A DNA stretch of 64,000 bases from Tubulanus polymorphus (Eukaryota > Animalia > Nemertea): contig NC_134029.1 of assembly GCF_964204645.1 (NCBI RefSeq), positions 13,542,850 to 13,606,849 of the forward strand, in the 5' to 3' direction. Positions 920-48,700 of the stretch are shown in pieces. Both the position numbers and the translations under genes were made by a program. Under the pieces are notes generated by a model. That model did not search any database. It was not told where the DNA came from and worked only from the letters and a program-made list of their open reading frames with translations. Numbering within the stretch: the first letter of the stretch is position 1; each line of letters begins with the position of its first letter.

Positions 920-1101
920 TGTTACAGACTCTTGATCTAGTTTGTTATATTTCTGTAATTAGTACGCCGGATAGAGGGCGTCATTGTCGTTGTATCGCCG
1001 CCATTTTCGACACGGTTGAAAAATAAAGTAAAAAACGTAAAATTAACCGTAATTCAACGTCGCGCTTTTTTGCTGATTGTTTCGCCGTGGAATCCGTAAC
1101 A
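920..1101 (+). mobile_element. 3' LTR of the Bel/Pao element (~182 bp)
   Basis: Starts TGTTAC (920), ends GTAACA (1101) as a terminal inverted hexamer; internal AATAAA (~1022); Polinton gene sequence resumes immediately after 1101. Confidence 0.75.
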
Positions 1102-5284: not shown

Positions 5285-5375
5285 GCTTCGAATAATTGGA
5301 AAATGACGTTTTCAGGCCAGAGGACAAGAGGACGACACATCACTCATCACCACAAGTAATTTTCCCCCCTGATAA

Positions 5376-14011: not shown

Positions 14012-14439
14012 TTATGAAAAATTAGTAAATTTATATGCTACAAATATAAAAATAATTGTTCCACCTAAAATCCAAATTATTTCATATTGTAGTTGTTCTT
14101 TACTTGGGGTATAATAATCTGATAATTTCGGTTTATATAGATGTAATTTTTCACGATTTGTTACTGCGTTACATAAACTCATAGCATCATCAACTGGCTT
14201 AAAATCTCTATGAGAAATATTTTGGTTATATAATTCTTTATTAATATAATCCATATAATTATGTCTCTTTTCTCTATATTCTTCTGCAGCTTTATTATAT
14301 TTCTCTAATGCTAAGTAATGTCTTTTTTGTTCTGATAATGAACCATTTTTATGAATATGTTTAAATAAATAACCACCACCTGTAAATGCTAAAGCGTTAA
14401 CAATTGCCGATCCTATAATGGTTATAACTTCAGATGCAT
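14012..14439 (-). pseudogene. Membrane protein (AIVNALAFTGGGYLF / EQKRH motif)
   Basis: Homolog of intact 61798-62217. Confidence 0.7.
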
Positions 14440-14454
14440 TTTATTTAATAAAAT

Positions 14455-15050
14455 AATTACGCATTAATAAGAGGAATATATTTTTGTTTTTTCCAAATAA
14501 TCAATTGTTAAATTAGATAGAGTAACTGCTAACGTTAATTTTAAAATATCATTGATATAGAATTTATCAACATTAATACTTCCCATTTTAAATACTTTTT
14601 TATATCATTGTATAACCAACAGTTCCAACTGATAGTAATGCTCCATTATATTAACCAGTTATCATCCACTTCTGATCCGCCATTTATTTAGAAAAAAATT
14701 ACTATCTTCAAAATATTTAGTTATCTTATCTATAATTATTTCAACATTTATAATATTATTAGTTTCATTTTCATATACTTCAGTTATTATTTTTCTGATA
14801 TCATCAATAATAAAATCTTCATCTACTTCATAACATCTTGAAGAATTTCTAATTAAATCAGTAATCTTTTCTACATCATAAATTCCTTTATCTATTGTTG
14901 TTTCATAATCAAATGTTGTTTCATTGAAAAATGCATATTTTAACAATAACATTTAAAAATGAGTTATAACATCATTAATGTTACATTTCATTTCTTTCTC
15001 ACGTTTAAAATCAAATCCAAAACATATACTCGGTCTTCTGTTATATTCAT
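14455..15050 (-). pseudogene. Two small conserved viral genes (homologs of 62237-62473 and 62470-62817)
   Basis: GALLSVGTVGYTM; CFGFDFKREKEMK..EDFIIDDI..YFEDSNFF. Confidence 0.6.
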
Positions 15051-15075
15051 ATTTATATATATATATAAAAAATTA

Positions 15076-15835
15076 TTACTGTTTACATCTTATAACTAAT
15101 TCATAAATTACAGGAAAATTATTTAAATCATTTAAGTAAAAATTATGATTTCTTAATTCTAATTTAAAATTATTAAATCGTGGAATACAAGGCTTGAAAT
15201 CACATTCAGCTAAATTATAATTCATTGTTTCATGCGTTCCAAACTGTTTAACATTTTTTAATGGTAAAATATTTAATATACTAGAATTACAAATTGTATC
15301 TTTAGTTGCTTCAAATGTTTTTATAGGATCAATTAAATTACAATAAATATAGAATTGTGTGTAAGGTATTAAGTTTGACCTACCTTCTACGCTTGCAGTA
15401 ACAATATTTGTTTTAATTCCTAACATTTTAGCCATTGGTTTGTTTACCATAAATTTATTTTGTTCATTAGCTAATTTTATTCTTATTTTATCAGAACTAT
15501 CAATTTTAACAAATTTAATTTCAAACTTACTTGATGGGCCTATTTCTAAACGAGCTATTTTATTAATTTTTTGCGCTAATGATTCTAAATTACATAATCC
15601 TGGTTTAAGAACTAGATGAAACCATTTACTTTTATTTCTAATATAAATTGCAATACCTCTATGTTCAATAGTTTTATCCGATATATTGTATGAGTTACAT
15701 AAACTAATATTTACTAAATTGAAATCAACATTAATTCTTAAATTCTCTATCTAATTGTACTAGTAAATTATGTGATTTGGAATTTATAAGTTTTCTAGAA
15801 TCAACAAATATTCTATATTCTTTTAATTCAACCAT
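15076..15835 (-). pseudogene. Minor capsid (penton-like) protein
   Basis: N-terminal FVDSRKL..SYNI, C-terminal FYIYCNLID and FPVIYELVI resemble Polinton mCP; frameshifted. Confidence 0.68.
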
Positions 15836-20374: not shown

Positions 20375-20985
20375 TTATTTTATAAATTTATATTCATAGG
20401 GAAATTGAAGCCTCAGTAATAATTTTGAACCTTTATTACTTTTTAATTTATTCATATATTCATCATGTAAGTTAGTAGGTATAATTTGATTTTCTTCCAG
20501 AGATTGCTGCATTGATTTTCTATCTTTATTATAGAATAATACTAAAAATCTAATGTTTTCTCTAAAGTCTTTAACAATTTAATTATATTTTTGATTTAAA
20601 ACCCATGTTGTTATCCCAAAATGTCTCCCAGAGAAAGCTAGATAGCATAACTCACTTTCTCTAATTTTTGAATCATGTAAATTAGCACAATCATCTATAA
20701 TGAATAATGTATTTGATCCTTTATAATTATCAATTGCTGTTTTTATACAATTATCTAAATTTTCTTTCACTTTTTTAGGATTTAATATAATAAACTTTTT
20801 ATCTTAACTATATCTCTATTATATGTTTTAATCATTTCATAAGTGGGGCAGAATAATATTATATTATCAAAATGATTCTTATAAATAGTTTCTAACAAAT
20901 CTAATATGAAATGCGTTTTACCACAGTTGGTTACACCAGTAACTTACATATTATGTGGTTCAAATATAAATAAATCTTTATTCAT
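20375..20985 (-). pseudogene. Packaging ATPase
   Basis: GVTNCGKT, FIIDDC, FSGRHFG; premature TAA after NQKYN. Confidence 0.9.
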
Positions 20986-21215
20986 TTATTCTTTTAATTT
21001 TATTAGATAAACCCCATTCATTAAATTTATCATCATACCCTTTATATTTCACCAAAGAATACTTTTTTCCTTTTAGAGTTTTTGTTTTCAATACTTTTTC
21101 TATTTTGTATTCTATATCATCTGGATTTGGTACAAGTGCTAATTCTTGTTCATAGAAATAACCTAATATTTCTTCATCTTTTAAATCTTCTAATTTATAA
21201 ACAAAAGGTTTAGTA
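20978..21215 (-). pseudogene. Integrase C-terminus with chromodomain (5' truncated)
   Basis: GYFYEQEL..YKIEKVLK..LVKYKGYDDKFNEW; matches the end of 55364-55915. Confidence 0.85.
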
Positions 21216-21230
21216 TGGAATGAAATTCAA

Positions 21231-21480
21231 GACAAAATTATATGATGTTTTTATACATATATACATATTTTCTATGGCATTTTCATATCAATTTAAAACA
21301 TATCTAAATGAATTTTAGACATATACATATCTTTTTAAGACATAAACATATGTTTTTAGACAAAAATTATATGATATTCTTATACATTTACGTATATTTT
21401 CTATGGCATTTTCATATCAATTTAAAACATATCTAAATGAATTGAAGACATATACATATCTTTTTTAAGACATTTACATT
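21231..21480. repeat. Direct duplication of a ~125-130 bp AT-rich unit
   Basis: TTCTATGGCATTTTCATATCAATTTAAAACATATCTAAATGAATT occurs at ~21270 and ~21399. Confidence 0.8.
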
Positions 21481-22071
21481 TCAAACATATACATATATTA
21501 TACACACGTTTCTAAAGATATTATATGTCGTGTGTATTTTAGACATATACATATGCGCCATCTACTTCATACCTCGATAACTATTTATAAATATATGACT
21601 GTATTTTCTAAAAACATATGGTCGATCCATGCGCCCTCATCTATTAAATTTAGAGTTCAGACTGAGAACCAGAAAATGATGACGAAGCAGTGTGGCGGAT
21701 CGGACTAATGTTATGACGGAACCAGTCTAAATTGGTCAAGGTCGCAGAAGGCTTTCGGGTAACCATTATTCTTTTTCGCTCAAGGTCATCGACCCCTCAC
21801 AAAGAGCTATTCACTGCTGCCGGTTTTATTATCTTCTTGAAGTTTTTGTAGTTAAAGACTATGTAGGCCTACGGACGTGACGTATGTTTATCTCTCCTCG
21901 AAGGCTATATAGTTTAGGCGCAGGCCTCTTCAGTTGCCACATCACAGGGCACAGAGCAACAACATACATAATTGTCAGCAGAGCAGATTTTGTCTTTCCA
22001 TCACTCGGTACTAGACGATCTTCTGATTTTAGTCACTATTTAATAGGCCTATAGTCTAGTATACTACGGCT

Positions 22072-22203: not shown

Positions 22204-23232
22204 TTCTTATATAGCCCAATACATGGGCGGCACCAGAGGTGCGAACAACCCCCTTTGTAGAAATTCCCAAACGATCGTCGCATAGGGAATTGACCTCGAT
22301 AATGCGGTTGCAGCACTTAACGATCGTCGATGTGTCATCACCAGTCACAATCAACGCCTGAAATATTTCTGTCTGAAGGGCAGATCCCGCTCGGGTGCGG
22401 GGCAAATATTAGACGGAATCATAAATATTTGTGGATGGTTAGGTCCCGTTGTTCTTGACGTATTCGTTGGTAATATGCCTAGTGGATTGCATCAGAATGC
22501 ATCAGACATAATTTTGCAGAAATTTCCGCTCCGCTCTTCGGCGACTTTTATACTTAGTTAAATATTACGTACTCGACCCCCCGTAGAAAATTCGCCCATG
22601 AACAAACTGATGAGTTAAACTAATGTTCGTCACAGTTGATCAACAACAACTACACAAACTAGTTCAGCGTGGTAATGCTAGGAACAACTTGTATTGGTCT
22701 AGATCATTGTAATGATGACTTAAGTTCCTATTTTTTAGCTCATGAATGCATCAGAGGTGTTTGATATATATTCAGCTATACGAAATATTCCCAGCTTAAT
22801 TGAACGAGCTCACAATATTTGTGCAAGTTCTGAAGAATTTATTCTCAATGTGGCAGAAATTTTGTTGAGACGGCTTTCTGATCACACAAAAATCTTATTC
22901 TTGTACTGCTCCTACGAACTGACGAAAATTGGGAACGAAGGCCTGTGGAGATCATGAATACACTTTTGCAAAATTTACTTGCTGCTTCCACTGTTCTCTC
23001 TACTGTCACTGATGAACATTATTTGAGAGTAAATGTTTGTCTTGGTTATATAAACATTGAACATGAACATAGTGGTCTTGTTGGTAAGTAGGATTTGTAC
23101 ATTTGATAAACGTAGTAGTAATCAGTTGTGTTGGAAGTGCAGCGGCATAGCTTAAATCACGATGATAATTTACTGAATGACGTTTTTTTTCTTTGAATAC
23201 CATATTTTTTCACATTCACCGCAGTATTAGAA

Positions 23233-24363
23233 CGGTGTTGTCATATCGCGGAAAGACGGAATCGCGGAATTTTCCAAAAACGCGGAATTTCTTCATTTTT
23301 ACTTTAAATAGAAAACGGGTTTTCCCACGGGGATACCCACTGTCGGACAGGGCACCGGACCGATCGATGCAACGAGTTAGGTTCGAGTCCCATTATTTGC
23401 AGGCAATTTATATGGAATTATTATATTACGATACCGTTGACTGGCTGCCACCTGTAGAAGAAGTCAGAATCAAGTGGGGTGAAAGAGACCAGGCACCTAA
23501 TGTCTATTTCTACTAGGCAAACTTCGGTTATCGAAGTTCATCGACTTTTTGAGAACTTCAGAAACGAATATTATCAGATAAATATTGAGCACGTTCGCGG
23601 TGTCGGACCGTAGTTGTAGATGGTTGCAAACATGAAATCCTACGACCAAACAAGTACCGGTTCAAATTCCTTCGTCAAATTCGTCCAGTACCGGTACCAA
23701 TAAGATTCTTTTGATCCAAATAATCAGCATAGGAACATATGTTATAGCAGCCACAAAGTAAACATTAAAAAAACGAAACCATTTTATAATCTTTCATATC
23801 ATTTAATTCTTAAAGATAAACCACATTCCCTTAAAACAACAATGTAGACACACAACACGCATGAACAATCCTAAGCCAGAATGAAATATACATAATGTCT
23901 ATTTATTTTCGTCTGACATCGATCCAGTTCCACAGTTGTGAGTTAACTCTGAGTTACTTAGAATCAATTCATTTCCAATGTTTTAAATCCAGAGACCAGA
24001 GTCAAATCTTAACTCGGAACTGAGTCCTGGAGAATGCCCCTTGGTGTCATCACAAATCCTACGTTTACGTACCATCGATTTGTATTCCTTCAGTTAATGC
24101 AGCGACACTCTGTATCACTGAATTCGCAAAGCACGTATTGCCTAGGTTCTACATTATTTTGGAACAGTATCGTTAAGTTGTTGACTGGCGATATAATAAA
24201 TTATCAAATACTAATTCCCGGTGTTGAAAACCTGGGTCCGGTGCCCTGTCCGACAGTGGGTATCCCCGTGGGAAAACCCGTCTACTATTTATAGTAAAAA
24301 TGAAGAAATTCCGCGTTTTTGGAAAATTCCGCGATTCCGTCTTTCCGCGATATGACAACACCG
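23233..24363. mobile_element. Non-autonomous Mutator-like DNA transposon (~128-bp TIRs, 9-bp TSD)
   Basis: TIR CGGTGTTGTCATATCGCGG..GGCACCGGACC at both ends; flanks GTATTAGAA / GTATAAGAA (8 of 9 match). Confidence 0.85.
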
Positions 24364-24709
24364 GTATAAGAACCTGTCAAAAATCGGCAATTGGCCACAG
24401 CAATCAAAATCTACTTCCAACGCGCCTGGTAATACCCTAATTTTCATTTCAATTTGCATACCGGGTATATGGTTCAAAGATATCCTCAAACTAGCTATTA
24501 AAGTTAGGTTAACATTTGAATAATTAAAGCAATTATTTTTTTTCAGGGCGCCCTAGAATCAGCTATGATGTTGACAAACTATCTCAGCTCTGTAATGATA
24601 GTAGATTCAGGTCTCTACATGAAATTGCTGCAGAAATTGTTGTTTCCACTAGGACTCTTTATAGGTTTGTAGATGTAACAACATTCAAGGAGTCAGTATT
24701 ACGTCAGGT

Positions 24710-26463
24710 TGTGACGGTATTTAGTTGTACTGTGAGCCTCGCGGGCGTATTCTGAGTTGCCTTTCTTTTCGGAGTCATGAGAAAAATCGAGTTAGTTGAT
24801 AATGCGATTTGTGGCATTCTTACCCATTCCCCTGATGCCTCGGGTCGGATTTGGAGGGGGTTGATTGGTTGAGTTTAGTATCGTTTAGTATCAAGCACCC
24901 CGGACCGGATGCCACGTGCGAGTTGTTTATGAATGTGACGTCACCCTGTCAATCACTTCCGGGTCATCCCTCGTCACGCTCCGGATAATCGTCGTTTTCC
25001 CTTTGTAATCAAATTAGAGTCACCTGATATTTCCCGAATAGGTAGTCGTGAATATTTTATAGTTCTGAAGTGCATGAGAACGTTTATGAAGAAATCCGGA
25101 GTGGAAATTAGCTGTGAGCGTTTTATCCGGGTTCGAAGCGCGCGCCAGTTGCCGAGACGGGCTTCTACGCGCCCTTCCCTCCCTTCGCGTTCAAAGGAAA
25201 GAATTTTTCTGCCGGTTTCTATTATTTTATCTATTAACCTCAGAAAGAAGCTTTCGGGAAATGTTTACTTGAAAGGAATCGGTGAAGAAACGAAGATTTT
25301 AGAGCCGTTTGAAAGTTCGAACAGAGCACAGTCATTTATGCGGCGCGAAATCAACAAAAAGCGTGGCGCGACACTCCGGGGTCGGCAATCTCGCCATAAA
25401 AGGCGCGCGATTCGCCGACTCGAGACAGTCTTCTCTCGACCGTTGAGGGGTTAAGTAGAAGAGTAGTTGCAGCAAGATATAAGTGGTTGAGTTTCGTTGG
25501 GTGTTCGCCCTGCGGGGTTGTGGCGCCGTATGGGCGCGTTATTAGTTGAAGGGCCTGTAATACGTATGCGTCATAGTTGAGTCGTCCGTACCTTCGTGTA
25601 TATAGTAAAACAAGTCCCCAACATTTTTCCGAGGGGATGTGTGTCCCTAGGAAGTCGTATTTTAATGTTCAACGCCCTATGATACGGGAATAAGTGGATA
25701 AATAAAAGTTATACATGCAATGTTAATGTCTCGGGACCCGAGGCGAGTTAGTCGTATCGCTCGGACGTTAGTGCGTATACCCGCGTGTAGTAGTAGGCCT
25801 AGCAGTATGTCTGGTCGTTCGTATACAGATGATGTTCGGGGTTGCGGGCCGACAATAAAGTTTGGTTTGAATTGAATTGGTGTAGAGAAGCGCTAGTGTG
25901 ATGGTGTAAAGTCCCGGGTGTTGTCATGTACACGCGTATAAGTTATATTTTGTGGAGGGAGACGACCTCGTTTAATAGTGTGTAATAAATTTATGTTCCC
26001 GTGACGTTTTGTATGACGAACCTTGAGTCGCGTACTTCGCGAAAGTTTCGGTGTGGGATAATTAAGTCCGTGTATATATAAAAGAGTTATTTCCTTCTTT
26101 CTCACTGATACGCCCGCGCCGAGCTGATGGGAGCGACAGTAGAGTGTCAACGTAGATAGAGCTGCGTCGCCGGTAGTGGAAGAATACGTCAGAGAACAGT
26201 TATAGTCGATTAGCCCGTTATCACGTACAGTGTATTTCTAATGAAAATAAAGTGTACATCGATTCATTTTCCTTTAAACATGTGGTCATTTAGGTTGATT
26301 TTGGTTGTTTGTGGCTTATATGTGCGAGTACCCCTGAATTGTGATTGAGCAGGTGTGTTGCGGACTCGGCAGTAGAGGATCATCGGATAAGGCCCCGAGG
26401 TCCTTCGAGGTACGATGCAGCGTTCGTCGGCTTTGTATCCTGTGGCGTTGGACATACTGTCAC
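24710..26463 (+). mobile_element. Probable solo-LTR-like insertion in a transposase intron
   Basis: GC-richer block beginning TGTGAC and ending near GTCAC, with TATATAAAAG (~26075) and AATAAA (~26246); no TSD confirmed. Confidence 0.4.
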
Positions 26464-27087
26464 GCTGGCAGGAGGGATGAGTGACAAGGCTTGAGTCCCT
26501 TATAGAATGAGATAGGGCGATTTCAGGTCTGGAGTAAGCGCGCGCTGGTTACCGCGTATCATGTTCGGGTTGAGTGGCCAATAACCCTAGGTGTGATGCT
26601 GTGTGTGGTAACTTTTCTCATCGTAAGAGGAGAGGAGACATTCGTAAAAGTAGAGGATTCGTCAGTATAACTCCAATGATCGTCCAGAAAACACGAACTA
26701 TACATTACATATATACATGTATATATTCTAGATATCACGTGTCTTTTACGAAGAACTTGTTACATCAATTATTACAAGCACATGTACATACACACTAGGT
26801 AAAATGCATAGAGCGAGTAGAACGTTACATAGATACATCCTGGCAAGGAATGTAGCCATTTTAGGAATGATGAATCATGTTCACATCTTTCAGGTGGCGG
26901 TTAAACAATGACTTGCCAATTGGTCGACAACGGTATACAGATATGAGTGATGCAGAGGTGGATAGTGTAGTTGAAGATATCTTACATTTCAACCCAAACG
27001 CTGGTGAAACTATGGTTAGAGGTGGCTTTGCTGCCCGTAATATCAAAATTCAAGTATTGCGTGTGCGGGATTCCATAATGCGGTTAG

Positions 27088-27500
27088 TTTTTTTAGCCCA
27101 CTTGGAACTTAAGCGGGCTGTATTGTTTACTTTTCGTCAGTCCGTCCATCCGGAATCCAATTATTTTGGGAAGTTTTGAAGACGCTATTTGATGAGAAGC
27201 AAGGTATCGACTTTGAAGGGCCTTACTTAAACATTTGTAAAAAGTATTGACAGGTTTTAACACTAAGTCTTGGTATTTGATAAAGTGTATCACTGTCATC
27301 ACCTCACGTGGAATTAGGATTACCCAGGGGGAGTTGAATATTGAATTATATAGAATTTACAAAATACATTTTGTAACCACAATCAATTGCAAAATTGTAG
27401 CTAGTGACTGACAGGTTCTATGATTGTGAGGAGTTTCAAGGTCATTGGTTTTTATGGTCACGAAGTTTTAAAAAGCTGAATAACTTAGGTTTTACACCAG
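27088..27500 (-). mobile_element. HINE-like repeat family copy in intron (related to 31682-32790 and 34295-34725)
   Basis: Shared TTTTTAGCC(C)ACT, GTCCGTCCATCCG, TTTTGGGAAGTTTTGAAGACG and ACCAGGGGG..TTGAATA blocks. Confidence 0.6.
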
Positions 27501-28523
27501 GGGGTGTTGGCTATTGATATTTAGCGGAGCTGATGGGTTAGGGTGATTATCCATCGTCGTCTGTCCGTCAACTTTTTTCAACACATGAAATGATTTATCT
27601 TATTAGTTATTCTTTGCTCATCCCCATTAGAAATCCTAGATGTTTAGGTTGAATGTAAACAATTTCTTTTTTTCAGGCATTTAGATGGAAACCACAAACT
27701 TATCAGATGGCGCTTTGTTATACATGGGTGTATAGACGGCTTTAGTCGATATATAATTTATGTCAATTGTAAAGACAATAACAGAGCATCTACTGTTTTT
27801 GATTTTTTCACACATGCTGTGAACTTGTGTGGGGTGCCATCAAGAATCAGAACAGATATGGGTGTAGAAAATGGTCAGGTTATAATATTTATGTTGGATT
27901 TATGTTGGTCAAAATCGTGGCAGTGCTATAACCGGGAGAAGTGTTCATAATCAGCGCATTGAAAGATTATGGCTAGATGTTCGGCATCAAGTCACAGAAT
28001 ATTATCGTAGAATTTTTTATTCATTGGAGCAGCATATGTTGATTGCTGATGATGAACTTCATCTCTATGCTCTCCATTTTGTGTTTCTACCGAGGATTAA
28101 TAGAAGTTTAGACTTTTCAGATCAAACTATAATAATCATCCTATGCGTACATTGCACGGGGCATCGCCGTATCAAGTTTGGGTAAGGGGACCATGGGAAG
28201 AGGAAGGTATCAATGTATCAGATATTCCAACATAAGAAATATATGATTATGAAGCTACGTCAAACAATAATTTCCACATTCCAGAAATAGTATATGAAGA
28301 AATTGGAAATATGCTAGGATTTATAGATCCTTTGGCCGAGGATAATTATCATGGAATTGATCTATACATGTATGTCTGTAATATACTGATGGGGACCAAT
28401 AACACGCTTAGAGAAGATGCGTGACTACAAATTTTGTAATATACACATACTTCACGAATGGTGATTCATTAATAGTTATTTTGGGAGGGGAAAATCAGGA
28501 CCATCAATATTCATCCAATATAA

Positions 28524-28689
28524 GGAAACATACATTTATTAAGTACGCATTAGGGGAGGGGGTAGGGGTCAGTGCAATTGCGCACTGTAATGCTAAACGT
28601 ATACGAAAAAAATGGCCGATTTTGCGTACAGAGGGGGAGAGGGGTTGAAAAATTCAAATTTAATGCGTACGTAATAAATGAATGATCCC
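28524..28689. mobile_element. PIF/Harbinger-like MITE
   Basis: Imperfect ~28-bp TIRs (GGAAACATACATTTATTAAGTACGCATT / AATGCGTACGTAATAAATGAATGATCCC) flanked by TAA. Confidence 0.65.
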
Positions 28690-29388
28690 TAAGCAATTAT
28701 CCGCATATTGCCAATCCGGCTTTATGTACTTAAAATTACAATCCTAATGGTATGGATTAAAATTCAACATCAAAGATTTTGACAGTAACATTTAGTCTCC
28801 TTGTGGCAATTCTTTAAGATTCAAAGAATGGAAAAGCCCAAATATTTTGTTAGATCTTCATCTGTATCACCCTATTTACTCGCCAGAATTTGATAACCCC
28901 CCCCCCCCCTGAAGCTCATGCCAACACAAACCCTTCATCCATTGATCTACACTGCCCAAGAACTTGTATCAATGAATGAAGGGTCTGCAGCCAGGGTTTG
29001 TGTCTGTGTGATCTTCGGAGGTAGGAAATGAACTCTGGCAAGCGAGGATGCATCTGCATGTAATTCAATTATTATACAAGTAGTACGTCATGCCCAAGCT
29101 TCGTCTCCTCAACATTTCATGAGTTTTCCAAAAATGTGTTTCAATGGAAAAAGTGAAAAGTGAAATAAACGATTATCAAGTAGTATTGGTTGTATAATGA
29201 TATAGTGATATGTAAATGCTAAAATTCTCGAGGTACACAATTGTCACATGTAAACATACAATTGATTGTCAAAAAGGTAGCATATAAAAGTAATATTCAA
29301 TGTAGCGGATACATTTATCCAATTATTGTCATCAGGGTAGTAAATAAAAGTACAGTACAATCAAGCAAATACATTTTTCGATTAATTT

Positions 29389-29544
29389 CTACAGAACACC
29401 AAATCCAATTGATCCAAAATTAAGGGCGATGTCCATGTCCCGTTTAAATGTTTCATAGGAATCATGCTTGCCAGGCAATGTAAGCTGACTAAATCATGCT
29501 TGTGATGATGGCATTATGTCTAATTCAGACACAAATTTCCAGGT
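29389..29544 (-). pseudogene. HECT E3 ligase C-terminal end belonging to transposon 1 (cut by transposon 2)
   Basis: Minus strand reads TWKFVSELDIMPSSQA*FSQLTLPGKHDSYETFKRDMDIALNFGSIGFGVL*, a HECT C-lobe tail with TGA at the catalytic Cys position; not in the ORF track. Confidence 0.82.
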
Positions 29545-29584
29545 TACGGAAGCCCCTAGGTGACATACGAGAAATTTTTTTCAC

Positions 29585-29712
29585 AATTTCGACTTATTAA
29601 GTCGAATTTCGACATAATAAGTCGAATTTCGACATAATAAGTCGAATTTCGACATAATAAGTCGAATTTCGACTTAATAAGTCGAATTTCGACATAATAA
29701 GTCGAAATTCGA
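29585..29712. repeat. Subterminal tandem array of a 20-bp palindromic unit (TTCGAC-ataataa-GTCGAA-t), ~6 copies
   Basis: Directly visible head-to-tail repeats with no spacers. Confidence 0.95.
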
Positions 29713-31681
29713 GTTATTTTAAATCAAAATTCGAGTTGTAGCGACTAGCCTACGTACGAACCGCGCACACGCGGGCGATACTCCGTTGATCGGAAACGTA
29801 CGATAAGTTCGTCAGAGAGAAGAGGCTGGACCAGTTGTAAGGCAGTAGTCAACTACATCCTACCAGTCTCAGGCTGCCTAACTTGGTAATAGCGCGGCGC
29901 GCACGGTACGTTCGGACGGCATCGCTTCATTCAGAATTTTTGTAAGTGCGGAAAACTAGGAAACGAGAGGGTATGTGTACGTATACGGGGATCTTAATTA
30001 ATAAACGCCTGGGGCACCTTCCCTACGCCCTTGGCACGGATTCGAACCTAATGGCATCGCGAGACTGTCGACGTTCGGTGACATTTGATCTCAGTCTAGA
30101 GACCGGCAATCTAATAAGATTGAATTGAATTGGTCTAGGATGTTTTAAGTTGGTCAAGGTCATGTGGAGAATACGTATGAGGGTTACCAATTTTCATCAA
30201 TATACCGGCGGTACGGTAGTATTGTATTGTGTTAATACATGTAAAGTTAGGCCTAAAATTATATGTTGGATTGATAGACTTCACTGACACTGTCATCCCA
30301 TTCCCCGATTCCCACCTGGCCCACATGGAATGGTCTATTAAAACTTTACAATGAGACTGATAGGACATCAGGTGGCCTCTCGACTAGTCTCTGTGAGTCA
30401 CAGCACAGTCGAGTCTGGATTCAGTTTTGGTACTGCTAGATAGAACTATGTCTGGACTGGTCTAGTACCTGTTGTTACCCAAACAACGTCTAGGGCGTAA
30501 GTGCACATATAAGGCTAATTTTCGTTCCTTTATTTTGAGGGACGAGGACCTCGAGGTTTTGTCACTGAGCGTCTATTTCAGCCCGACTGACGACTGTGTT
30601 TAGGCATAAATTTATATTCCAAAAAAGTTTTTGAGGATCATAGTGATACCTCACCTGCCATACGTGTAATCCTCCATTGTCACAGAAGCGGTGCCGGTAC
30701 CCCATTTCTGTTTTTGGGATTACCGGCAATTAGGTATACCAATTAGTCTCATATTTTTGTGGATGTTTTCAGATGGATGATTTGATTACCTTCATGAGGG
30801 AAAGAAATGTAGATGAATCATCTATTCAAAAACTATGTGATGATAAGGTAGAGTAATAAGTTTTGTTCAACATTTAGAATTAGATCCATGATGATTAACC
30901 CTGGCCTTGAACTGGTTCACAGTGTTCTTATTCAATTTGTCAAAAATAGATGTGTTTTGAAAACTTTTTACTGATTAATAATCCTTGGTTTTACTGATTA
31001 ATAATCCTAGTTGGGCCCGTGTGGTTCAGGAGCAAGCTGATTGAGATTATTGTTGCTATTGTCCAGATGAGTTGTGCTAAAGGAACATATGCGAATAAAA
31101 GAGATTTGTGTTCATTTTCTTTTGCAGATTGATGGTAGTGTTATTCCTGGGCTGAGTTCTGATCAGCTCAAGGTATATCTTCCAAAATTTGGTGATCGCC
31201 TGGCAGTTTTGTCATTCTGCCAAAGGACCGATGATTTTCGGGCAACAAAAAGGTCTAAGAATCTCATTGATCGATTGCGCTGTGCTGTAGGCACCGGTAC
31301 TAGACCTGCTTCTTCTCTACGCCAAAAAGTCCAAAGTGAAAGAACAATAGAACTCGGTTGGCTGAACAGAGAATGTGAAGAGAGCTTGTATAAGCAGATT
31401 AGAACACCTAATGGTGGTGGTACTCGAGTACTCAAATTACCGCGCGACTTCGCAGTTGGGGGTCTAATCAGAAAGGGGATAGAACTTTTTTTCCCCAATG
31501 ATAGATCTTTATTGGGAGGATGTGAAGAGTTCATCTTCACTCTGCTCGATTTCAAAGAAAATAAGCAATTTGACTATAATAAAACAATTGCTGAGTTTTA
31601 CACGGAAACAAAACTGAATCGATTGCGCTTCTACCTAGGAAGTACTAGGAAAGCAATTTTACAGGTAGGTTTAAATTTCAT

Positions 31682-32790
31682 TTTTTAGCCTACTCGAGGC
31701 TTAAGTTCCAGCGGAGTATTGTGTTCACTTTACGTTCGTCTGTCCATCCATCGGTCCGTCCATCCGTAGATGGAATCCAGTTATTTTGGGAAGTTTTGAA
31801 GACGGCTCTATGGATATTTTTGATACCGTATTTGGTTTATGTATCTACCCTAGACATATCTTCATCCCAAAAACTGGCGCGGTCAGATTTAAGATAGCTG
31901 ACCGGCTGCCATTGTTTGTTGTTAGCCAAAATCAGCACTTTTTACACATTTTTGAAGTTTTCAAGGGAAATTTCGAAGATGCTTCGACAAGTGGTTTTTC
32001 ATTTGATTTCCCGTATGGTGTATCAGCGTTAAAAAATTTTAGGTTAAAAAACCAAGGTTCAATACACAGCCAGCAAAGGTCAACATGCCTGCAGGATTAT
32101 GTTTATACATTAAAGTTATACATGTTAATCAAACTGTAGAGTAATTTTTTATTAATTTAGATATATTTTTTAAATTAGAATAGTTTTCTATTCTTTTTAG
32201 TTAAATGATGTTTTTGAAGTAACAATCATCTATGGTTCTGAAAAAAAGAAAGAGAAGTTCTCGGAAACAGATGACATAAAGGTAAGGCCTACATTCAACA
32301 AATGTGCAAGCGTTTGACCCGATCAAAATTGTTTTATCAAATTATTAGTATTGATCTCCTCTCGTGGAATTGGGGTTACTTAGGTTTTTGTTCTCACCAC
32401 CTGGGGGAATTGAATATTGAATTATATACAATTTGCCTATTTATATTGGTACCTATGGATATTTTGTAACCGCAATCAATTGCAAAGGTGTAGGTTGTGA
32501 CATTTTCTATGATTGTGAAGAGTTTCCAGGTCATCAGTTGTTGTATATGGTCACCAGGGGGCGTTGAATAGCCAAATAACTCACTATATTCATATTGTAT
32601 TGGTATCCAGGCATATTTTGTAACCACAATGAATTGCAAAATTGTAGCTCGTAACATGTTCTTTTATTGTGGTGAGTTTAAAGGTCATTGCTTTCTTAAT
32701 ATGTTCACCAGGGGGCGTTGAATATTGAAACTTTCTGTTTGTTGAGCATTTTAAACCACTTCCCAAGTGGGCGTGGTGTCCCTGGACCCC
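31682..32790 (-). mobile_element. HINE-like repeat fragments in HECT-gene introns
   Basis: TTTTTAGCCTACT start, GTCC microsatellite, repeated CACCAGGGGGCGTTGAATA units. Confidence 0.5.
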
Positions 32791-34040
32791 TAGTTAATAC
32801 GTTGTACATGTAGGATGAAATTATCACCTGTACTATTGCTTTATGTGAAAAACTTTATGCCAAAACTGGTTATCCATCCCTCATATAACTCTGAATTCAC
32901 CTAACACACTTTTTCTTACCCCCAATATGGTACAGATTCCTGTAAGCCCTATCTGTATGAGATTCAATATAGTGGCAGATTCGTTATAACCCCACAGTCT
33001 ACACCCGACCTATCAAGCTTTTATAGTATTGATATTTATTTTACAGATGCTAATTGATTGTGTACGTCAGCTTATCGCTCAGAATGACTTTTTACTTGTT
33101 ATCGATGGACATGTAGAATCTCTGTACAGCAATCTGGATGGGTTTCCTCTAAAAGATTTTGGTTTATCAAAGGAATGTACCATAACAGCTTTTCCTTATG
33201 TTTTACCATCATCGAGCAATACCAACCCTGTAAATGGAAGCGTTCCCTCCAATGGTTCTGCAAATAATGGCGGTCCTTCTGGAAACGAATTGACAACACT
33301 TAAAGAAGATTTGCCTACAATTCAGGTAAACTTGTGCCTTTCACATTTTGTCTGTTATAACTTTATTTTAGGGAAATCTGAATTTTCTTTTTCTTTCTGA
33401 GACATCATGGGGAATGTTTGTAGTCACCAGAGGGTGGTTGGGTAATAAAGAAGTGTTGGCCCATCATCCATATCCATGTAAACTTCTATGGATAGTGCAT
33501 TTCCCAAGCCCTCAACCCCTAGACAGGAAGAAAATCTGACAAGAAAATTTTTTTAATGTTATTCTTGCAGCATAAACCCAGAAACGATCAGATTCGCGAC
33601 CAAGGGTGCCTAAGCAACAAAAAAATTAAAAAGTCAATTTCGTCAACGGCTCGAGCAAACAACAATGAAAAATTCTCAACGTTCACTTCATTCACTCAGT
33701 CAATGCCTGAAGTTCTGAATTCTCCTGCATCACCTCAAGTATCTTCGTTTGTCAGTTCACTCTCTTGCACTATTCCAGCTTCATCCACTCAAAGTTCCAG
33801 TAGAGAATATATTCCTTATCCAACCCTTCAAATATCTCCAATGGCACCAGAAAGTGACGAGGAATTAATACCATTTCATACCCACTGTATACCAACGCCT
33901 GTCACAGTTGTGGATCCTTGTATTGCTGCTGTGCCTCAAAGTTCTAGTAGAGGATATCTTTCGAATTCAACCATTCAAGGCAATTCTGAAACCGACCAGC
34001 AACCTTCATATAGGTATGTTTCCGACTAGGACAAGGCTAA

Positions 34041-34187
34041 CAGCCGCGGATCCAGGATTTCGGGGAGGGGTTGCACAAATTAGGAAGGGGGGTCTGAGGG
34101 TCCTCGCCCAGAAAATATTTTTAAATTAGATGCACGGAGACGCGTTCTAGGCAGGATCAGAGTACGTCTGACCTGGATCCGCCGCTG
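34041..34187. mobile_element. Small MITE with CAGC(C/G)GCGGATCCAGG TIRs (hAT-like ends)
   Basis: CAGCCGCGGATCCAGG ... CCTGGATCCGCCGCTG; no clear TSD. Confidence 0.55.
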
Positions 34188-34541
34188 AATGAATCATCAC
34201 CTTGTAAAATAGTTTTTCTGCTGGGCTTAACAACCTCAGGCTTATTCATTTTTAAACAAGGTACTGTTAAATTCTCAAATATGAAATGTTGCCTCTTTTT
34301 AGCCCACTTGGACTCAGGTCCCAGTGCTATTGCGTTCACTTTTCGTCCATCTGGGAAGTTTTGAAAATGCTTCAATGAATTGTCTTCATATTCGGTTAAG
34401 CCATGCTCGCCATTGTTGTTTACCGAAATCAGAACTTGTTTGACAAGTTTCATTATGATTGAAAATGAAATTATATACAATTTGACTTTTCAAGTTAGTA
34501 CCTACCAGGGTATGCATATTTTGGCACCACAATCAATTGTA

Positions 34542-34609
34542 CAGTGGAACCTCGTTATAACGAACATATTTTCTGGTCTCCTGAAGTTTGCTGTAACGAG
34601 GTTTCACTG
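34542..34609. mobile_element. 68-bp Tc1/mariner (pogo/Tigger-like) MITE with TA TSD
   Basis: TA-CAGTGGAACCTCGTTA ... TAACGAGGTTTCACTG-TA, nested in a HINE-like repeat. Confidence 0.75.
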
Positions 34610-36788
34610 TACATAAGTAGCTCATGACATCACTGAGATGATCGATCATCGATTTCTGAATTTGTTTACCAGGGGGCGTTGAATATATTAAACTTGTCAG
34701 ATTTTCAAGCATTTCAACAAGTGCATCCCTAGTTGCGTTATATTTCTCAGTCGTTATTCATTTTTCATAGGTTTGTCCAAGCTGGCACACCTACGATATT
34801 ATTCAGAAATCAAATTCCAACAAGTATCGAAGAAGTTCTCCGAGGACTTTCTTCACCAATTGACCAAGACGGCAAAAAAATGTGATTAACGTGACACGAG
34901 AGAAGGTGCTCGATGGGGCATACAGAGGATTCTCCCGTGAATCATTCTGTGCTAATAATTTACTGAGTGTAAAATTCCATGGAGAGCAAGGAATAGACAC
35001 GGGTGGTCTTTCCAGAGAGTTTCTCCGGCTTGCCCTGATACAGTTATCAAGGAGCAATCTGTTTACGGGCTCAGAAAATAAGAAGTTTTTAGAGCTTGAT
35101 GCAAAAGGTAAGAATATATATTTGTCCAGAAACAAATTACTTTTGCCAGTGGCTTCAATCTCGATTCCAATAGTTAGTGTTATATATGCTAAATTATTTG
35201 TGATATACAAGTCGTTTCCTATCAATGTTAATATCTTTGTAGCTCTTGGTAAGGAACGCTATATAATTGCTGGTAAACTCGTTGCTTACTCTGTGGTACA
35301 TGGAGGGCCGTTGCCCCAGTTCCTCCACCCACAGATGTATGAACATGTGAGTGGAGGATATGCAAAGATTAAAATTGACGATGTACCGGACACAGATGTC
35401 AGAGCAAAAATGAAAGCGGTAGGTTTTTACATTGATATTTTAGGTCAAAAAAATGATTTCTCTTTTATTTTTCGTGCAAGATGTTGATATCTGTTCAAAG
35501 CAGTGATTTTGCAGTGAATCTGTTGACTAGGGTTAGGCTAAAATCTGTTGACTAAACTACTTTGGGTGTCAAAACTGAATGAATTGTTTTTCAAGCCCCG
35601 ATAGTGGTGGCCATTGGCTTACGAGTCGCTGGCGAATTCCAACCAATTCCTTTTCACAAATTAGTTTAAGATGGTATGTTTCTATTTTGTAGCTTGCTAA
35701 CGCAACAGACAAAGAATCTCTGCGTCATGCAGTAGATGATGCCATTGACATTCTAGCACTAGTAGGATGTCTTCCTATAAACAGCCTAGAAGAAGCTGTA
35801 CAAAGCGCAAGCAATGTTGCACACTGGTACATTTTTCAAAGGACTAACTCTGCTATTGAACAGTAAGTCTTTTCCATCCTCCTTTCCATTGAGTAAAATT
35901 CACTGTAAAGAATTATCAGTCAAATGTTGTACTTTCAATGCATGGAGAGTTTAATAAGATGTAAAATGTTAAAAATCTGAAATGAATCCGCAAATGAACT
36001 ACTGTAATTAAACTGAGATTTGAGAAATCACTTGCAGTAATGATATTCTCTGTTTTTTAGGTTCAAAAGTGGTTTGGAAACCTTGGGGTTTTTAATGGCG
36101 GTACAAGAAAACCGAGATCTCATGCGAGAGGTTTTTCTGGAACCCATTCATAGCCTTGATGCCAATCAGATACTAGATATGTTCCAGACACCAGAATTAA
36201 GCCCGGAAGGTTCAAATAAAAGGAGGGCCGAGTCTGATACACTAGCATATTGGTATGATTTTGTCGAGCATCTGGGAGGTACGCATAGTCAAATTCCCCT
36301 TATCATTATTTATCTGATTATCTATATCCATTGGCATTACTTGTAAGTAGTTAAGGCATTGTTTCAAACACATACATGTACATATATTTCTTTTTCAGAA
36401 CGTGGTTTCCTGGAAGACCTTCTTATATCCACTACAGGGTTGGCACGCCCCCCACCTCTTGGATTTGATCCACCAGTGTGTATACGGTTTCGACATCCAT
36501 CGGATGGAAGTGATGAGTAGACAAGAAACTACCCTATCGCAAATACCTGCGCCAATATTTTGCATTTACCTGTTCTTAGCGAAGACGACGAATTTCAGCA
36601 AAACATGCTTGCTGCGATTCTTAGTTGTCTGTCTTTTACGGACAAATGAAAACATAACAATTACTGCACAATCATGTACTGCATAGTTATGTACCGTATG
36701 CATTTCATTTTGTTCTTAATTACTCTGAGTTCAGAGGCTGACCCGAAATTAATAGTCGCTACCTAGCCTGCAATCTTAATTTTTAGCC

Positions 36789-37190
36789 CGCTTTCAAATT
36801 CATTAATTTTTTATCATTTGTTTAGTTTATACATTAAATATCTATAAACATTGTTGAAATTTTAAAAGCGTATGCATGTTTATATAATATAGTTTTTTTA
36901 AGATGGGTTGTGAATCAGTATTTTAATAGCAATATTTTTGTTTTCATGACAATAATTTGAAAAAGCCAGCTTTCAAATTTAATTCTTTTTTATCATTTGT
37001 TTTGTTTATACATTAAATATCTATAAACATTGTTGAAATTTTAAAAGCGTATGCATGTTTATATATTATAGTTTTTTAAGATGGGTTGTGAATCAGTATT
37101 TTAATAGCAATATTTTTGTTTTCATGACAATAATTTGAAAAAGCCAGCTTTCAAATTTAATTCTTTCTTATCATTTGTTTAGTTAATTCA
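36789..37190. repeat. Tandem repeat, ~178-bp unit, ~2.3 copies
   Basis: GCTTTCAAATT..TATCATTTG starts at ~36790, 36969, 37147. Confidence 0.9.
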
Positions 37191-37629
37191 ATAGAATATC
37201 TGTTGACAGTGTAGAAATTATAGAACAGTATGCATGATTATAGATTATATTTTTGTATCAATACTTTCATAATCATCAGTGGCTACTTTGGACCCGTTTT
37301 TTAGTTTTGTAGAGATCTTTTCTGAACAAATCAGTTCTATGCATGATTAAATAAAAAGTTTGGTTCATTCAATTAATTGTTTTTTGCTTATATTGTGGGC
37401 TGAAATTTGCGCTTTTAGAAATTTGATACAGACATTCATACAGACTAACCTGATTGTATGACTCTAAAATTGGTACAATGAACCCTGTCTGAAACTGAGG
37501 ACTGTATTGTTTCTATTGAAACCAGACACCCTATATACATGCACATTTAAGACAGTAATATAAAATCGGCCACTTATTTTTGATTGTGAAAATCAACACA
37601 TCACAAAGTTGACGATTAGAAAGTTGAAC

Positions 37630-37966
37630 TTAAACAAGCATCCTCCTAATTTCCTGCCTCAAAAAGCTGTACAGTTCTACAGCATCATATGCATCGCTGG
37701 GAATGCGATAATTGTGATCCTGCATGATTTCCATCACAGCATCTAGTATGGCTGGATCTTTGCATGTGACATCGTCCTTTTCTATACAATCTTCAGCACA
37801 CGCATCTGTTTCAGCTCGCGTCAACGGTCCCCGTAGCATATCCACGCCACCAAACAGCTCAGGGTACTTATAAAGTTGCGCGGGGACTCCTGATATAATA
37901 TGATTTCTAGACATTTTTCGGATTGTATGGGAATTCCATTCGTCGGCTACTTGGTCCATAGCATCC
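37630..37966 (-). pseudogene. Last exon of the IS3EU-like transposase of transposon 2
   Basis: Acceptor (polypyrimidine..TTAG) then DAMDQVADEWNSHTIR..SGVPAQLYKYPELFGG..DAVELYSFLR, the typical C-terminus of this integrase-core family; upstream exons not seen. Confidence 0.78.
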
Positions 37967-39554: not shown

Positions 39555-40442
39555 ATCTTTATCAGAGACGAGATATTTGGGGGTCTTAGGATTATGGGTC
39601 TTAGGTTTAGTATATTATATATAGGTGTCACTAAACCTAAGACCCATTAACCTAAGACCCGACTCTAAATCATTATTTGTGTACTTTAGACTATTCAAAA
39701 TGGTTCTAATATATAGATATTAGTTAAAATGATCCATCGATGGCCCATTTAAATTTGGTTTATTTATCAGAGACGTATTTGAGGGTCTTAGGTTTATAGG
39801 TCTTAGGTTTAGTATATTATATATAGGTGTCACTAAACCTAAGACCCATAAACCTAAGACCCGACTCTAAATCATTATTTGTGTACGTTAGACTATTCAA
39901 AATGGTTCTAATATATAGATATTTGTTAAAATGTTCCATCGATGGCCTATTTAAATTTGGTTCATTTATCAGAGACGAGATATTTGGGGGTCTTAGGTTT
40001 ATGGGTCTTAGGTTTAGTATATTATATATAGGTGTCACTAAACCTAAGACCCATAAACCTAAGACCCGACTCTAAATCATTATTTGTGTACTTTAGACTA
40101 TTCAAAATGGTTCTAATATATAGATATTAGTTAATGATCCATCGATGGCCTATTTAAATTTGGGTCATTTATCAGAGACGAGATATTTGGGGGTCTTAGG
40201 TTTATGGGTCTTAGGTTTAGTATATTATATATAGGTGTCACTAAACCTAAGACCCATAAACATAAGACCTGGCCCTAATTCGTTATTTGTGTACTTTGGA
40301 CGAGATATTTGGGGGTCTTAGGTTTATGGGTCTTAGGTTTAGTATATCATATATAAGTGTCACTAAACCTAAGACCCCCTAAACATAAGACCTAACGGGT
40401 CTTAGGTCTTAGGTTTAGGGGGTCTTAGGTTTAGTGACACCC
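39555..40442. repeat. Tandem array (~203-bp unit) of hairpin-containing transposon-end sequence
   Basis: ATCAGAGACG recurs at 39561, 39766, 39968, 40171; each unit has ~31-bp inverted arms GGGTCTTAGGTTTATGGGTCTTAGGTTTAGT / ACTAAACCTAAGACCCATAAACCTAAGACCC; array ends TAGTGACACCCG. Confidence 0.92.
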
Positions 40443-45776: not shown

Positions 45777-48700
45777 AGAATTAGAAAAACGACCTAATAC
45801 AGGGGATAACATTTTAGCTAGCGATTTCGAGAGAAAATACGAGGGTCATCCACAATTAGAAATAATGGGACGTAAGGGTACACCAGATTTATGAATTTTA
45901 GGTAAACCATAAGCGTATGGAAGGGAGGCGAGACGACAATAAAAACGGCGAATGTAAGCTTTAAAATCACTATGTTTTTAAGCTACCTCGTCGCTATAGT
46001 TTAGCCTTACGTGAACTCAGATCTTTGAAATACCTTCGTATCTCTAAAGCGGACAAAGGCGGCAAGATTGTCATCATGGATGTTGTGGACTATGATAAAA
46101 CTAGAATGACGCAAAGCCTCGAATGCCCCCGGCCTGAAATCCACCGCCACGTGAAGTTACAGGGTTTATGGTAAATGCGTTAGAAATATCATGGCCACAA
46201 TTATTTCTATAAGAATGATATTAGAGAACATGTGTACAAAGTGTAAATAATTCATCCACAGTTGCAGCCTCTAGGCTGTTTTCCCCTGATGGCCATAATT
46301 TTAATTGGTCAACAATTGCAGCCTCTAGTAATAATTTGAATCGAATCGACCCGATTTTAAATAGGGTTCTGCACAAGGGATATCCTACTTGTGTACCAAG
46401 TTTGAAGTTAATCGGTCAACAATTCCTGCCTCTAGGCTATTAATGTAGTTTTTCGTGTTGGCCCCCTGGTGGGCATTATTCAGATCAAATTGACACAATT
46501 TTAGATTGGATTCGGGGCGACGTGATACCCTACTTGTGTACCAAGTTTGATCGGTCACCAATTGCAGCCTCTAGGCTGTGAACATCGTTGTTCATGTTCG
46601 CACCCTGGTGGCCATAATTTGAATCGAATCAACCCAATTTTATAAGGCTTTTGGCCCAAGTGTTATCCTACTTTTGTACCAAATTTAAAATGAGTGGGTC
46701 AGCAATTGCGGCTTTTAGCCTGTTAACGTTGTTTTTCATGTCGGCCCTCTGGTTGCCAGAATTTGAATCGAATCAACCCAATTTTAAATAGGGTTCTGGC
46801 CCAAGTGTTATCCTACTTGTGTACTAGGTTTGAAATGAATCGGCCGACAATTGCGGCCTCTAGACTGCTAACGTTGTTTTTCATGCCAGCCCCCTGGTGG
46901 CCAAAATTTGAATCGAATCAACCCAATTTCAAATAGGGTTCTCGCCCAAGTGATATACTACTCGTGTACCAAGTTTGAAAACAATCGGTCAACAATTGCG
47001 GCCTCTAGGCAGTTAACGTCACTTTCAGCGGCGGCGACATATTCAGACAGAGGTAAATCTATATGCCCCCTCTCAACTTAAGTTGAGCCAGGGGCATAAA
47101 AAAACGGTCAACAATTAAGGCCTCTAGACTGTTAACATTATTTTTTATGTCGGCCCCCTAGTGGCCATTATTTGGATCGAATCGCCCCAATTTTAGATAG
47201 GGTTCTGGCCCAGGTAATATCCAACTTGTGTTCCAAGTTTGAAATGAATTGATCACCAATTGCGGCCTCTAGGCTGTTAATGTCGCTATTCATGTCAGCC
47301 CCCTGGTGGCCATAATTTGAATCGAATCGACCTAATCTTACATAGGGTTCTGGCCCAAGTGATATCCTGCTTCTGTACCAAATTTGAAGACAATAGGTAA
47401 AAAATTGCAGCCTCTAGGCTGTTAACGTCGTTTTTCATGTCGGCCCCCTGGTGGCCATAATTTAAATCGAATCGACCCATTTCTAAAGATAGTTCTACCC
47501 CAAGTGATATCCTACTTGTGTACCAAGTTATAAAACAATCGGTCAACAATTGCGGCCTCTAGGCTGTTAACGTCGTTTTTCATGTCGCCCCCTGGTGGCC
47601 ATAATTTAAATCGAATAGACCCAATTTTTTTTAGGGTTCTGGCCCAAGTCATATCCTACTTGTGTACCAAGTTTTAAAACAATCGGTCATCAATTGCGGC
47701 CTCTAGGCTGTTAACGTCGTTTTTCATGTCTGCCCCCTGGTGGCCATAATTTAAATCGAATCGAACCAATTTTAAATAGGGTTCTGGCCCAAGTGGTATC
47801 CTACTTATGAACCAAATTTGAAAACAATCGGTCAACAATTACGGCCTCTAGACTGTTAACGCCACTTGCGCAGCGGCGTATACAGACAGGGGTAAATCTA
47901 TATGCGTCCTCAAAACTAAGCCGGGGCATAAAAATGTACACTATTCTTTCCGATCCTTTAGTTTATAAGTATTGGAATGGTTATACATACATTTATAACA
48001 ACTATAGAATACTGCTCACTAGAGCAGTAACTTGTTCAGCAGTAACGTGTATTCTACTGTATTAAACTGCATTACATCTGTACGTCATGCTCAGTACACA
48101 TCATGTGATATTTCACTATATATATTGATATGTAAAGGGTAGATGAGAGTCACTTTGAGAAACAACTACTTTAATGTCAACACCGAGTCGTACTGCTAGT
48201 CACTTCTTTCTGGAGAAAAGGTATTGACAATAAGCCTCTTAAAAAGATCCTTTTAAGTGTTGGCAAAGTAATTTTAATCATAACCTTGGACTTTTAGCTG
48301 AAAAACAGTGATTTTAAAGCTTATATTCGCCGTTTTTATTGTCGTCTCCCCTCCCTTCCATACGCTTATTGTGTACCTAAAATTCATAAATCTGGTGTAC
48401 CCTTACGCCCCATTATTTCTAATTGTGGATGACCCTCGTATTTTCTCTCGAAATCGCTAGCTAAAATGTTATCCTCTGTATTAGGTCATTTTTCTAACTC
48501 TCAGATTAAACATAACTCTAGACAGATTACGGTCCATCATTCCTAACTGTGACAAATTCATCTCATTTGATGTTGTTTCACTGTTTACTAATATCCCTTT
48601 AGAGGCTACTTTTGATTTCATTCGACGCAAACTTCCGGGCCTCCGACTCGAATTTCCCATTTCTGTTGAATGTCTCATTGATATACCTGAACTGTGTTCC

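Follow-up and report, generated by a model that had tools for sequence, protein, structure and literature searches.

The locus and its genes

The window analysed here, 64,000 nucleotides of contig NC_134029.1 of the nemertean Tubulanus polymorphus, is intron-rich, animal-type DNA containing two decayed DNA transposons of the IS3EU/GingerRoot type. The elements belong to different subfamilies and lie in the GC-richer middle part of the window. In each, a transposase gene is faced by a gene of a HECT ubiquitin ligase (E3), and all four genes are broken. The features are as follows (window coordinates; E, expectation value).

Element 1 (IS3EU NHKL subfamily)
21214..21241, + strand: left terminus, that is, the end of the terminal inverted repeat (TIR), TATGGAA-N10-GACAAAA; inside a Polinton-like integrase gene
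21249..21484, strand not applicable: subterminal repeats, 21-bp unit, about 10 copies (Tandem Repeats Finder, TRF)
22742..28424, + strand: transposase 1, spliced, broken; NHKL subfamily; catalytic D, D and E present
29389..29544, - strand: HECT tail 1, the last 51 codons only; abuts the terminus of element 2
Element 2 (IS3EU YDKL subfamily, below type 2)
29545..29572, + strand: left terminus, beginning TACGGAAGCCCC... / TACGGAAG; likely point of insertion into HECT 1
29585..29712, strand not applicable: subterminal repeats, 20-bp unit, 6.4 copies
30773..36649, + strand: HECT gene 2, 10 exons, 855 residues; all 9 introns are GT-AG
37630..37965, - strand: last exon of transposase 2, YDKL subfamily; 190 relatives at E ≤ 0.001

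Transposase 1 starts with the ATG at 22742 and has exons at 22742-23083, 24547-24664, 26894-27082 and 27677-28424, the first of them deduced solely from the reading frame and splice sites. It matches the Pfam family rva_4 (PF24764; E 1.5e-32 and 4.7e-24), has 200 relatives at E ≤ 1e-10, and its motifs, compared by eye, agree with those of IS3EU-1_CVi_1p. Its frame is shifted once in exon 1 and two or more times in the last exon; about 26 residues are missing ahead of the first catalytic Asp. Intron 1 carries an insert at 23227-24369 resembling a miniature inverted-repeat transposable element, with inverted arms of 135 nucleotides that are 96% alike.

HECT tail 1 was recognised with a profile of related HECTs (E 2.2e-9) and is 41% identical over 46 residues to the HECT tail of a related locus, L053. 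A TGA (29494-29496) occupies the position of the catalytic Cys, and the 34 residues behind this stop have no Pfam match. The remaining exons of HECT 1 were not found within the 64-kb window.

HECT gene 2 scores E 1.8e-56 with the HECT profile, covering positions 5-319 of 321, and its last 42 residues match the Pfam HECT model (E 1.6e-5). The protein consists of a SAM-like start, a ubiquitin-like domain, a disordered linker and the HECT domain with Cys823. It is disabled twice, by a one-base frameshift in the A7 run at 34874-34880 and by a TAG at 36518-36520, ten codons upstream of Cys823. The frameshift could be an assembly error; this is less likely for the TAG.

The surviving exon of transposase 2 lies behind the catalytic core. 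Its relatives come from a full HMMER search (a word-based one gave none); rva_4 is present in 7 of the 11 longer relatives scanned, and by eye they show the motifs of IS3EU-1_DR1p and IS3EU-1_CGi_2p. No upstream exons of this gene were found within the 64-kb window.

A sequence-only reading of the window had described transposase 1 (+) facing HECT tail 1 (-), and the 10-exon HECT gene 2 (+, 30773-36649) facing the last exon of transposase 2 (-, 37630-37966). Both arrangements hold in position and orientation, the end of transposase 1 being now placed at 28424 and the boundary of the transposase 2 exon at 37965. The likeness to IS3EU noted there is borne out by the rva_4 matches and the IS3EU motifs.

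Pairing of HECT and transposase genes in related elements

Metagenome contigs were scanned with the transposase alignment. At least 603 stretches matched, at least 550 were confirmed, and the best 80 were kept, with 175 kb searched downstream and 107 kb upstream. The HECT profile for this test was built from database relatives of HECT 2 and is independent of the 80 loci. Among these best 80 of at least 550, a convergent HECT within 5 kb downstream is present at 33 loci, representing 27 of the 67 clusters; for loci with at least 2 kb of downstream flank the count is 24 of 36. A HECT downstream on the same strand as the transposase was never seen (0 of 80), and upstream ones occur at one and two of the 80 loci in the two orientations. 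Pfam confirmed the domain in 19 of the 33 convergent open reading frames (ORFs) at E ≤ 0.001. A broader, partly circular profile raises the counts to 38 of 80 and 26 of 36. Several loci come from the same projects, so the clusters are not fully independent.

The pairing was also approached from the HECT side. Two genome bins with eukaryote-like contigs contain nine Pfam HECT matches: five are convergent with an IS3EU transposase (three of these being type 2), two are upstream in tandem, and two have no transposase in their 4.3 and 1.3 kb of flank. The type-2 transposases paired with a HECT are those of L094, L095 and L099; hence both subfamilies carry the pairing. For scanning, the 16-sequence type-2 alignment was too variable, and a 3-sequence one yielded 8 loci. 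IMG/VR, scanned with three alignments, gave no relatives.

Seven related elements have inverted end pairs of the form TAYGG..CCRTA, and six of the seven are flanked by a perfect 6-bp target duplication. In L020, L068, L071 and L089 both genes lie within TATGG ends and perfect 6-bp duplications. L079 likewise contains the two genes and TIRs but lacks a target duplication. The check suggested earlier, whether the HECT gene lies inside TIRs with target duplications, thus has a positive answer for the four relatives with duplications, and the window itself, having no right ends, does not provide such a case.

Copies of HECT 2 relatives are mobile in appearance as well. The named ones are from fish, beetles and a sea star; near-identical copies were found at several loci for 4 of the 10 clusters looked up, and dispersed copies occur in fish genomes. 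As the sequence-only reading suspected, the behaviour of multi-copy HECT genes that are annotated as "G2E3-like" or "uncharacterized" in animals, fish among them, is that of mobile cargo. A fish gene model, P0024, has cyclin domains joined to the HECT protein, a structure that would result if the element had inserted into a host gene or if two annotations had been merged.

In several loci the HECT-like gene is upstream of the transposase and not convergent with it: L017, L019 and L027 (25–27% GC), and L085 and L091, where the genes are in tandem. Enclosing inverted repeats were sought at these five loci and not found, and for this reason they are not counted as elements. The three low-GC loci may be non-animal. 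Other irregular cases are second transposase copies within L016, L039, L040 and L071, and L086 (5629-12241), where a type-2 transposase, with the ubiquitin-like domain beside it, is present as a perfect inverted duplication, which may be an assembly fold-back.

Given these data, we consider the HECT gene to be a standing part of the IS3EU element, with a probability of about 0.92. The convergent layout shared by the two window copies is then best read as an inherited family trait.

Ends, apparent nesting and decay

A matrix built from 14 termini of related elements ranks position 29545 first among 127,950 positions and position 21214 eighth. The 29545 terminus is closest to the end of the type-2 element L084, and the 21214 end is the closest match in the window (17 of 24) to the terminus of the complete element L068. 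A different Polinton-like copy matches the flank at 20701-21213 with 94% identity, and this similarity ends exactly at 21213. Subterminal arrays with 20–21-bp units stand behind both left ends, as they do in the complete relatives L020, L068, L071 and L079.

Raw reads were mapped to 29000-31700, a stretch that lies outside the HECT 2 lesions and the right-hand breakpoint. In run X5, 618 reads start at 29545 and 128 at 29544, and their left flanks are unrelated (agreement 0.39 and 0.42). The depth is about 920 and 330 on the terminus and array, compared to 3–15 on HECT tail 1 and the first exons of HECT 2. These data support 29545 as a multi-copy terminus. An X1 contig spans the 29544/29545 junction with no differences, its right side comprising 27 letters. 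Between this terminus and the HECT 2 start codon there are short high-depth repeat remnants (30034-30066, 30471-30546 and 30649-30706).

Since the terminus at 29545 cuts HECT 1, whose tail ends at 29544, the elements appear nested. An arrangement of two independent elements side by side was rejected because of this interruption. The "independent" transposons proposed earlier are so only in the sense of being two subfamilies: the copies appear nested and their layout inherited. In the history proposed here, the integrase gene of a Polinton-like copy was first hit by element 1. Element 2 would later have landed, inverted, in the last exon of the HECT gene of element 1, and both right ends would have been lost by deletion or rearrangement. 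Neither element has a right terminus that could be found within the 64 kb. As only left termini survive, TIR pairs and target duplications are not visible in the window. The right-hand breakpoint coincides with an array of 202-bp units with internal inverted repeats (39574-40441).

The AT-rich flanks of the window (1-21213 and 40442-64000) are made up of multiple decayed Polinton/adintovirus-like copies in both orientations, with genes of an A32 ATPase (E 6e-9), a capsid N-terminus and an integrase with a chromodomain. Tandem arrays with a 145-bp unit are located at 4111-5285 and 46331-47932.

The HECT protein

The profile of the element HECTs matches HUWE1 at E 2e-24. The structural model of a relative, P0001 (predicted local distance difference test score, pLDDT, 71), has the full HECT fold: Foldseek aligns it to HUWE1 (E 1.4e-10), and it also matches the HECT structures of NEDD4, E6AP and UBR5. 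The predicted fold of residues 66–177 in exon 2 of HECT 2 is a ubiquitin-like beta-grasp. The best match is the domain of BMI1 (Z 9.0, root-mean-square deviation 2.5, 80 aligned residues), closely followed by USP11, Atg5, Ring1B and UBX domains. The SAM-like character of the first 60 residues is suggested weakly, by Pfam hints at E 0.05–0.16 and by an atlas cluster in which 24% of the members carry SAM_1. No Pfam match to PHD/RING-like zinc fingers was obtained in exons 2, 4 and 5 of HECT 2 or in full-length relatives; on this ground HECT gene 2 was rejected as a G2E3 orthologue.

The 37 paired HECTs were aligned. The median identity is 22%, and the catalytic Cys is retained in 33 of the 34 rows covering it. 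In the window neither copy can be translated through the Cys, HECT 1 having a stop at this position and HECT 2 a frameshift and a stop upstream. Hence the C-terminal catalytic Cys named in the sequence-only reading is a feature of the family, present as Cys823 in HECT 2, that the window copies can no longer express. The frames of convergent HECTs are open for 350–670 residues. In the eight closest pairs the proportions of nonsynonymous and synonymous differences are 0.34–0.40 and 0.66–0.85, respectively; the synonymous sites are saturated, so no ratio of the two rates is given. Judging by this conservation, intact relatives probably make an active E3.

Exchange of the second gene

The second gene is not always a HECT. 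L084 (8621-16961) is a complete type-2 element with TACGG ends and a 6-bp duplication, and its second gene, convergent and spliced, encodes a protein kinase (Pkinase, E 1.2e-10). In P0015 an N-terminus of the HECT 2 type, SAM-like plus ubiquitin-like, is joined to a protein kinase, which means that the catalytic module is exchangeable. Pairs of loci also differ in which gene is better conserved: the transposases of L053 and L063 are 66% alike and their HECTs 26%, whereas for L089 and L085 it is the HECTs that are close (47%, with 29% for the transposases). Based on sequence comparison, the second-gene slot is modular, and HECTs swap between lineages.

Two further ORFs were noted near transposases. 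In L016, at 14429-15334 on the minus strand, there is an ORF of a Ulp1-like protease (Peptidase_C48, E 0.0013, narrowly missing the cut-off), convergent to a transposase that has no HECT; it may represent a third type of modifying enzyme for this position. In L026 an ORF with the ubiquitin-binding CUE domain (88-1149, minus strand, E 3e-5) is immediately upstream of the transposase.

A number of observations weigh against an obligatory, co-evolving pair of genes, and some against the unity of the window elements. Even with the broader profile, 10 of the 36 loci with at least 2 kb of downstream flank have no convergent HECT within 5 kb. The complete element L032 has no HECT match and the complete L084 has the kinase instead; hence not every lineage requires the ligase. 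Thus the earlier suggestion of a standing accessory gene stands insofar as the HECT is enriched in the convergent position and lies inside the ends of relatives, and has to be relaxed for the tandem, HECT-less and kinase cases. For the window copies, it is not proved by a right end or a target duplication that the terminus belongs to the same element as the HECT and the transposase. The high read depth is confined to the terminus and could reflect a short non-autonomous derivative; the mapped stretch of HECT 2 is at baseline depth, hence the genome has no close copies of it at 85% identity. In the single-copy check proposed earlier, HECT 2 thus looks single-copy by depth in this stretch, whereas its relatives are multi-copy and element-linked. 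The conservation of the Cys is itself inflated, as detection of HECTs relies on the Cys region. Finally, the transposase and HECT distances correlate weakly (Spearman 0.13, with 128 of 2000 permutations as high), and the nearest neighbour is the same for both genes in 9 of 32 cases; five of the 37 pairs with fewer than 100 aligned residues (L071, L077, L090, L094 and element 1 of the window) were left out of this distance test. Such weak agreement is more in line with the swapping of modules than with close co-evolution of an interface.

Possible function of the ligase

The reading to which we give most weight, at somewhat short of an even chance, is that the HECT ligase ubiquitylates the transposase of its own element, leading to removal of the latter by the host proteasome. 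The ligase would bind its transposase, as predicted for one pair of proteins, and tagging would, by analogy, limit the transposase level. It would also help to strip the stable post-insertion complex from DNA, in the way that ClpX does for phage Mu. Ubiquitin-like and UBX domains are known to recruit the proteasome or p97. In Mu, MuA stays bound until it is stripped by ClpX (PMC5357137).

The predicted complex is that of the L076 transposase and HECT. It scores 0.51, with 0.00 for the best control; at least 28% of the contacts are common to the runs, and the partner pLDDT is at least 69. The prediction ran without the supplied alignments. The mark set for this test was reached by 51 of 78 solved pairs, 2 of 108 mismatched pairs and 7 of 44 blind neighbours. 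Scores of 0.60 or less comprise only 5 of the 78 solved pairs and all 4 passing mismatches; the L076 score lies in this range, where a prediction is wrong more often than it is correct, which counts against the proposed interaction, and the support it lends is weak.

A different target is possible, although we hold it to be less probable: in the same elements the ligase may be a counter-defence enzyme directed at a host protein that acts in innate immunity or in the silencing of chromatin, the choice of target resting with the variable N-terminal part of the ligase. The rapid evolution of the HECTs and their swapping between lineages would suit this role, as would a slot that accepts varied modifying enzymes: HECTs, kinases (L084 and the P0015 fusion) and, in fungal IS3EU elements, an alpha-kinase and TET/JBP (PMC12730594). 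Among host proteins, G2E3 writes H3K14ub for heterochromatin according to a highlight article (PMC12920882), and a fish G2E3-like HECT degrades ISG15 (PMC13623101). The top fold match of the ubiquitin-like domain is a polycomb one, BMI1, but at Z 9.0 it is tied with others and represents a generic beta-grasp. Moreover, the N-terminal regions scanned contain no chromatin-reading domain, and the complex prediction weakly favours the transposase. If the ligase were instead a weapon between elements that degrades proteins of rival mobile elements, such as their transposases, one would understand why the elements cluster and insert into each other and into Polinton-like elements (the window; L016, L039, L040 and L071), and a close cousin of the true partner can indeed pass the complex test. 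Nesting, however, has other causes too and is frequent where repeats abound, and we regard this reading as quite unlikely.

The HECT could also have no role for the element, being a captured passenger that persists through hitch-hiking or because it benefits the host. GingerRoot elements do capture gene fragments (PMC6839031); some complete elements have no HECT (L032), and co-divergence is weak overall. Neutral fragments, though, would not be expected to keep their position and orientation across 27 clusters, or frames of 350–670 residues and the Cys at saturated synonymous distances, which makes such an origin unlikely. Least probable of all is the reading that transposon debris surrounds HECT gene 2 by chance and the gene itself is a normal single-copy gene of the host. 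The baseline depth of its first exons and the failure to find a right TIR in the window agree with this, but the gene has two disabling lesions and is bordered by a type-2 IS3EU terminus on one side and an exon of a type-2 transposase on the other; its relatives, multi-copy and linked to elements, have a patchy distribution.

Self-directed tagging of the transposase can be extended to a broader scheme, which as a whole we consider speculative and rather improbable. IS3EU would be a two-gene superfamily in which the second gene invariably encodes an enzyme that modifies proteins: a HECT E3 in most animals, kinases elsewhere. The HECT would tag the transposase to dismantle the post-insertion complex, as a self-encoded eukaryotic counterpart of ClpX, and the mobile ligases would be the source of the animal "G2E3-like" expansions, perhaps even of the HECT domain of the heterochromatin-building host G2E3.

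A transposon with its own catalytic ubiquitin ligase would, if the reading is true, tie transposition directly to the ubiquitin system, and the tie would serve control of the transposase or disarming of host defences. In annotations of fish, molluscs, echinoderms, cnidarians and beetles, many genes named "G2E3-like" or "uncharacterized HECT" probably represent transposon cargo, with consequences for counts of E3 families and for expression studies. The copies in the window are dead; their value is that they show both subfamilies and a nested insertion. An intact element is about 7 kb long.

Comparison with known systems

The elements resemble IS3EU and GingerRoot in the IS3-like DDE core, in the TAYGG ends and in the 6-bp duplications of the relatives; TA..TA ends and 6-bp duplications are given for IS3EU in PMC10045372. 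Pfam scans of the relatives gave helix-turn-helix hints and no integrase zinc domain, the HHCC zinc motif not having been searched for specifically. What differs is the HECT gene: the words "HECT" and "ubiquitin" are absent from the main texts of PMC10045372 and PMC6839031. The supplement of PMC10045372 includes both subfamilies, and some names in it end in _2p. In the literature searches no description of IS3EU elements with a HECT gene came up, although Repbase, which annotates a further protein in _2p entries, or Kojima 2019 may already name it. The structure of IS3EU is called largely unexplored in PMC11934779.

Among the HECT proteins, published surveys list the divergent G2E3 and GL-Metazoa families, with no mention of transposons (PMC3673628, PMC2837046). 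The element HECTs share with these families, as described there, a highly divergent HECT domain, and clusters of look-alike HECTs have automatically been given names of the kind "G2/M phase-specific E3 ligase-like". In contrast to them, the element HECTs have no PHD/RING, start with SAM-like and ubiquitin-like regions, and are mobile and multi-copy. NHRE3, an active G2E3-like HECT of fish, has a different N-terminus (PMC13623101).

Among other transposons, the Kolobok lineages have set accessory proteins (PMC9587614). The RAG1, Chapaev and Transib transposases have a RING E3 domain (PMC4411706) and likewise represent a DDE transposon system with ubiquitin-ligase capacity, but there the RING is fused to the transposase in another superfamily, whereas here the HECT is encoded by a separate gene. 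A further parallel is in the fungal IS3EU elements, which carry an alpha-kinase gene opposite in orientation to the transposase and a TET/JBP gene (PMC12730594). They belong to the same superfamily and have the same TAYGG..CCRTA ends and an oppositely oriented gene of a protein-modifying enzyme; in the elements described here the enzyme is a HECT E3, with L084 having a conventional protein kinase in its place.

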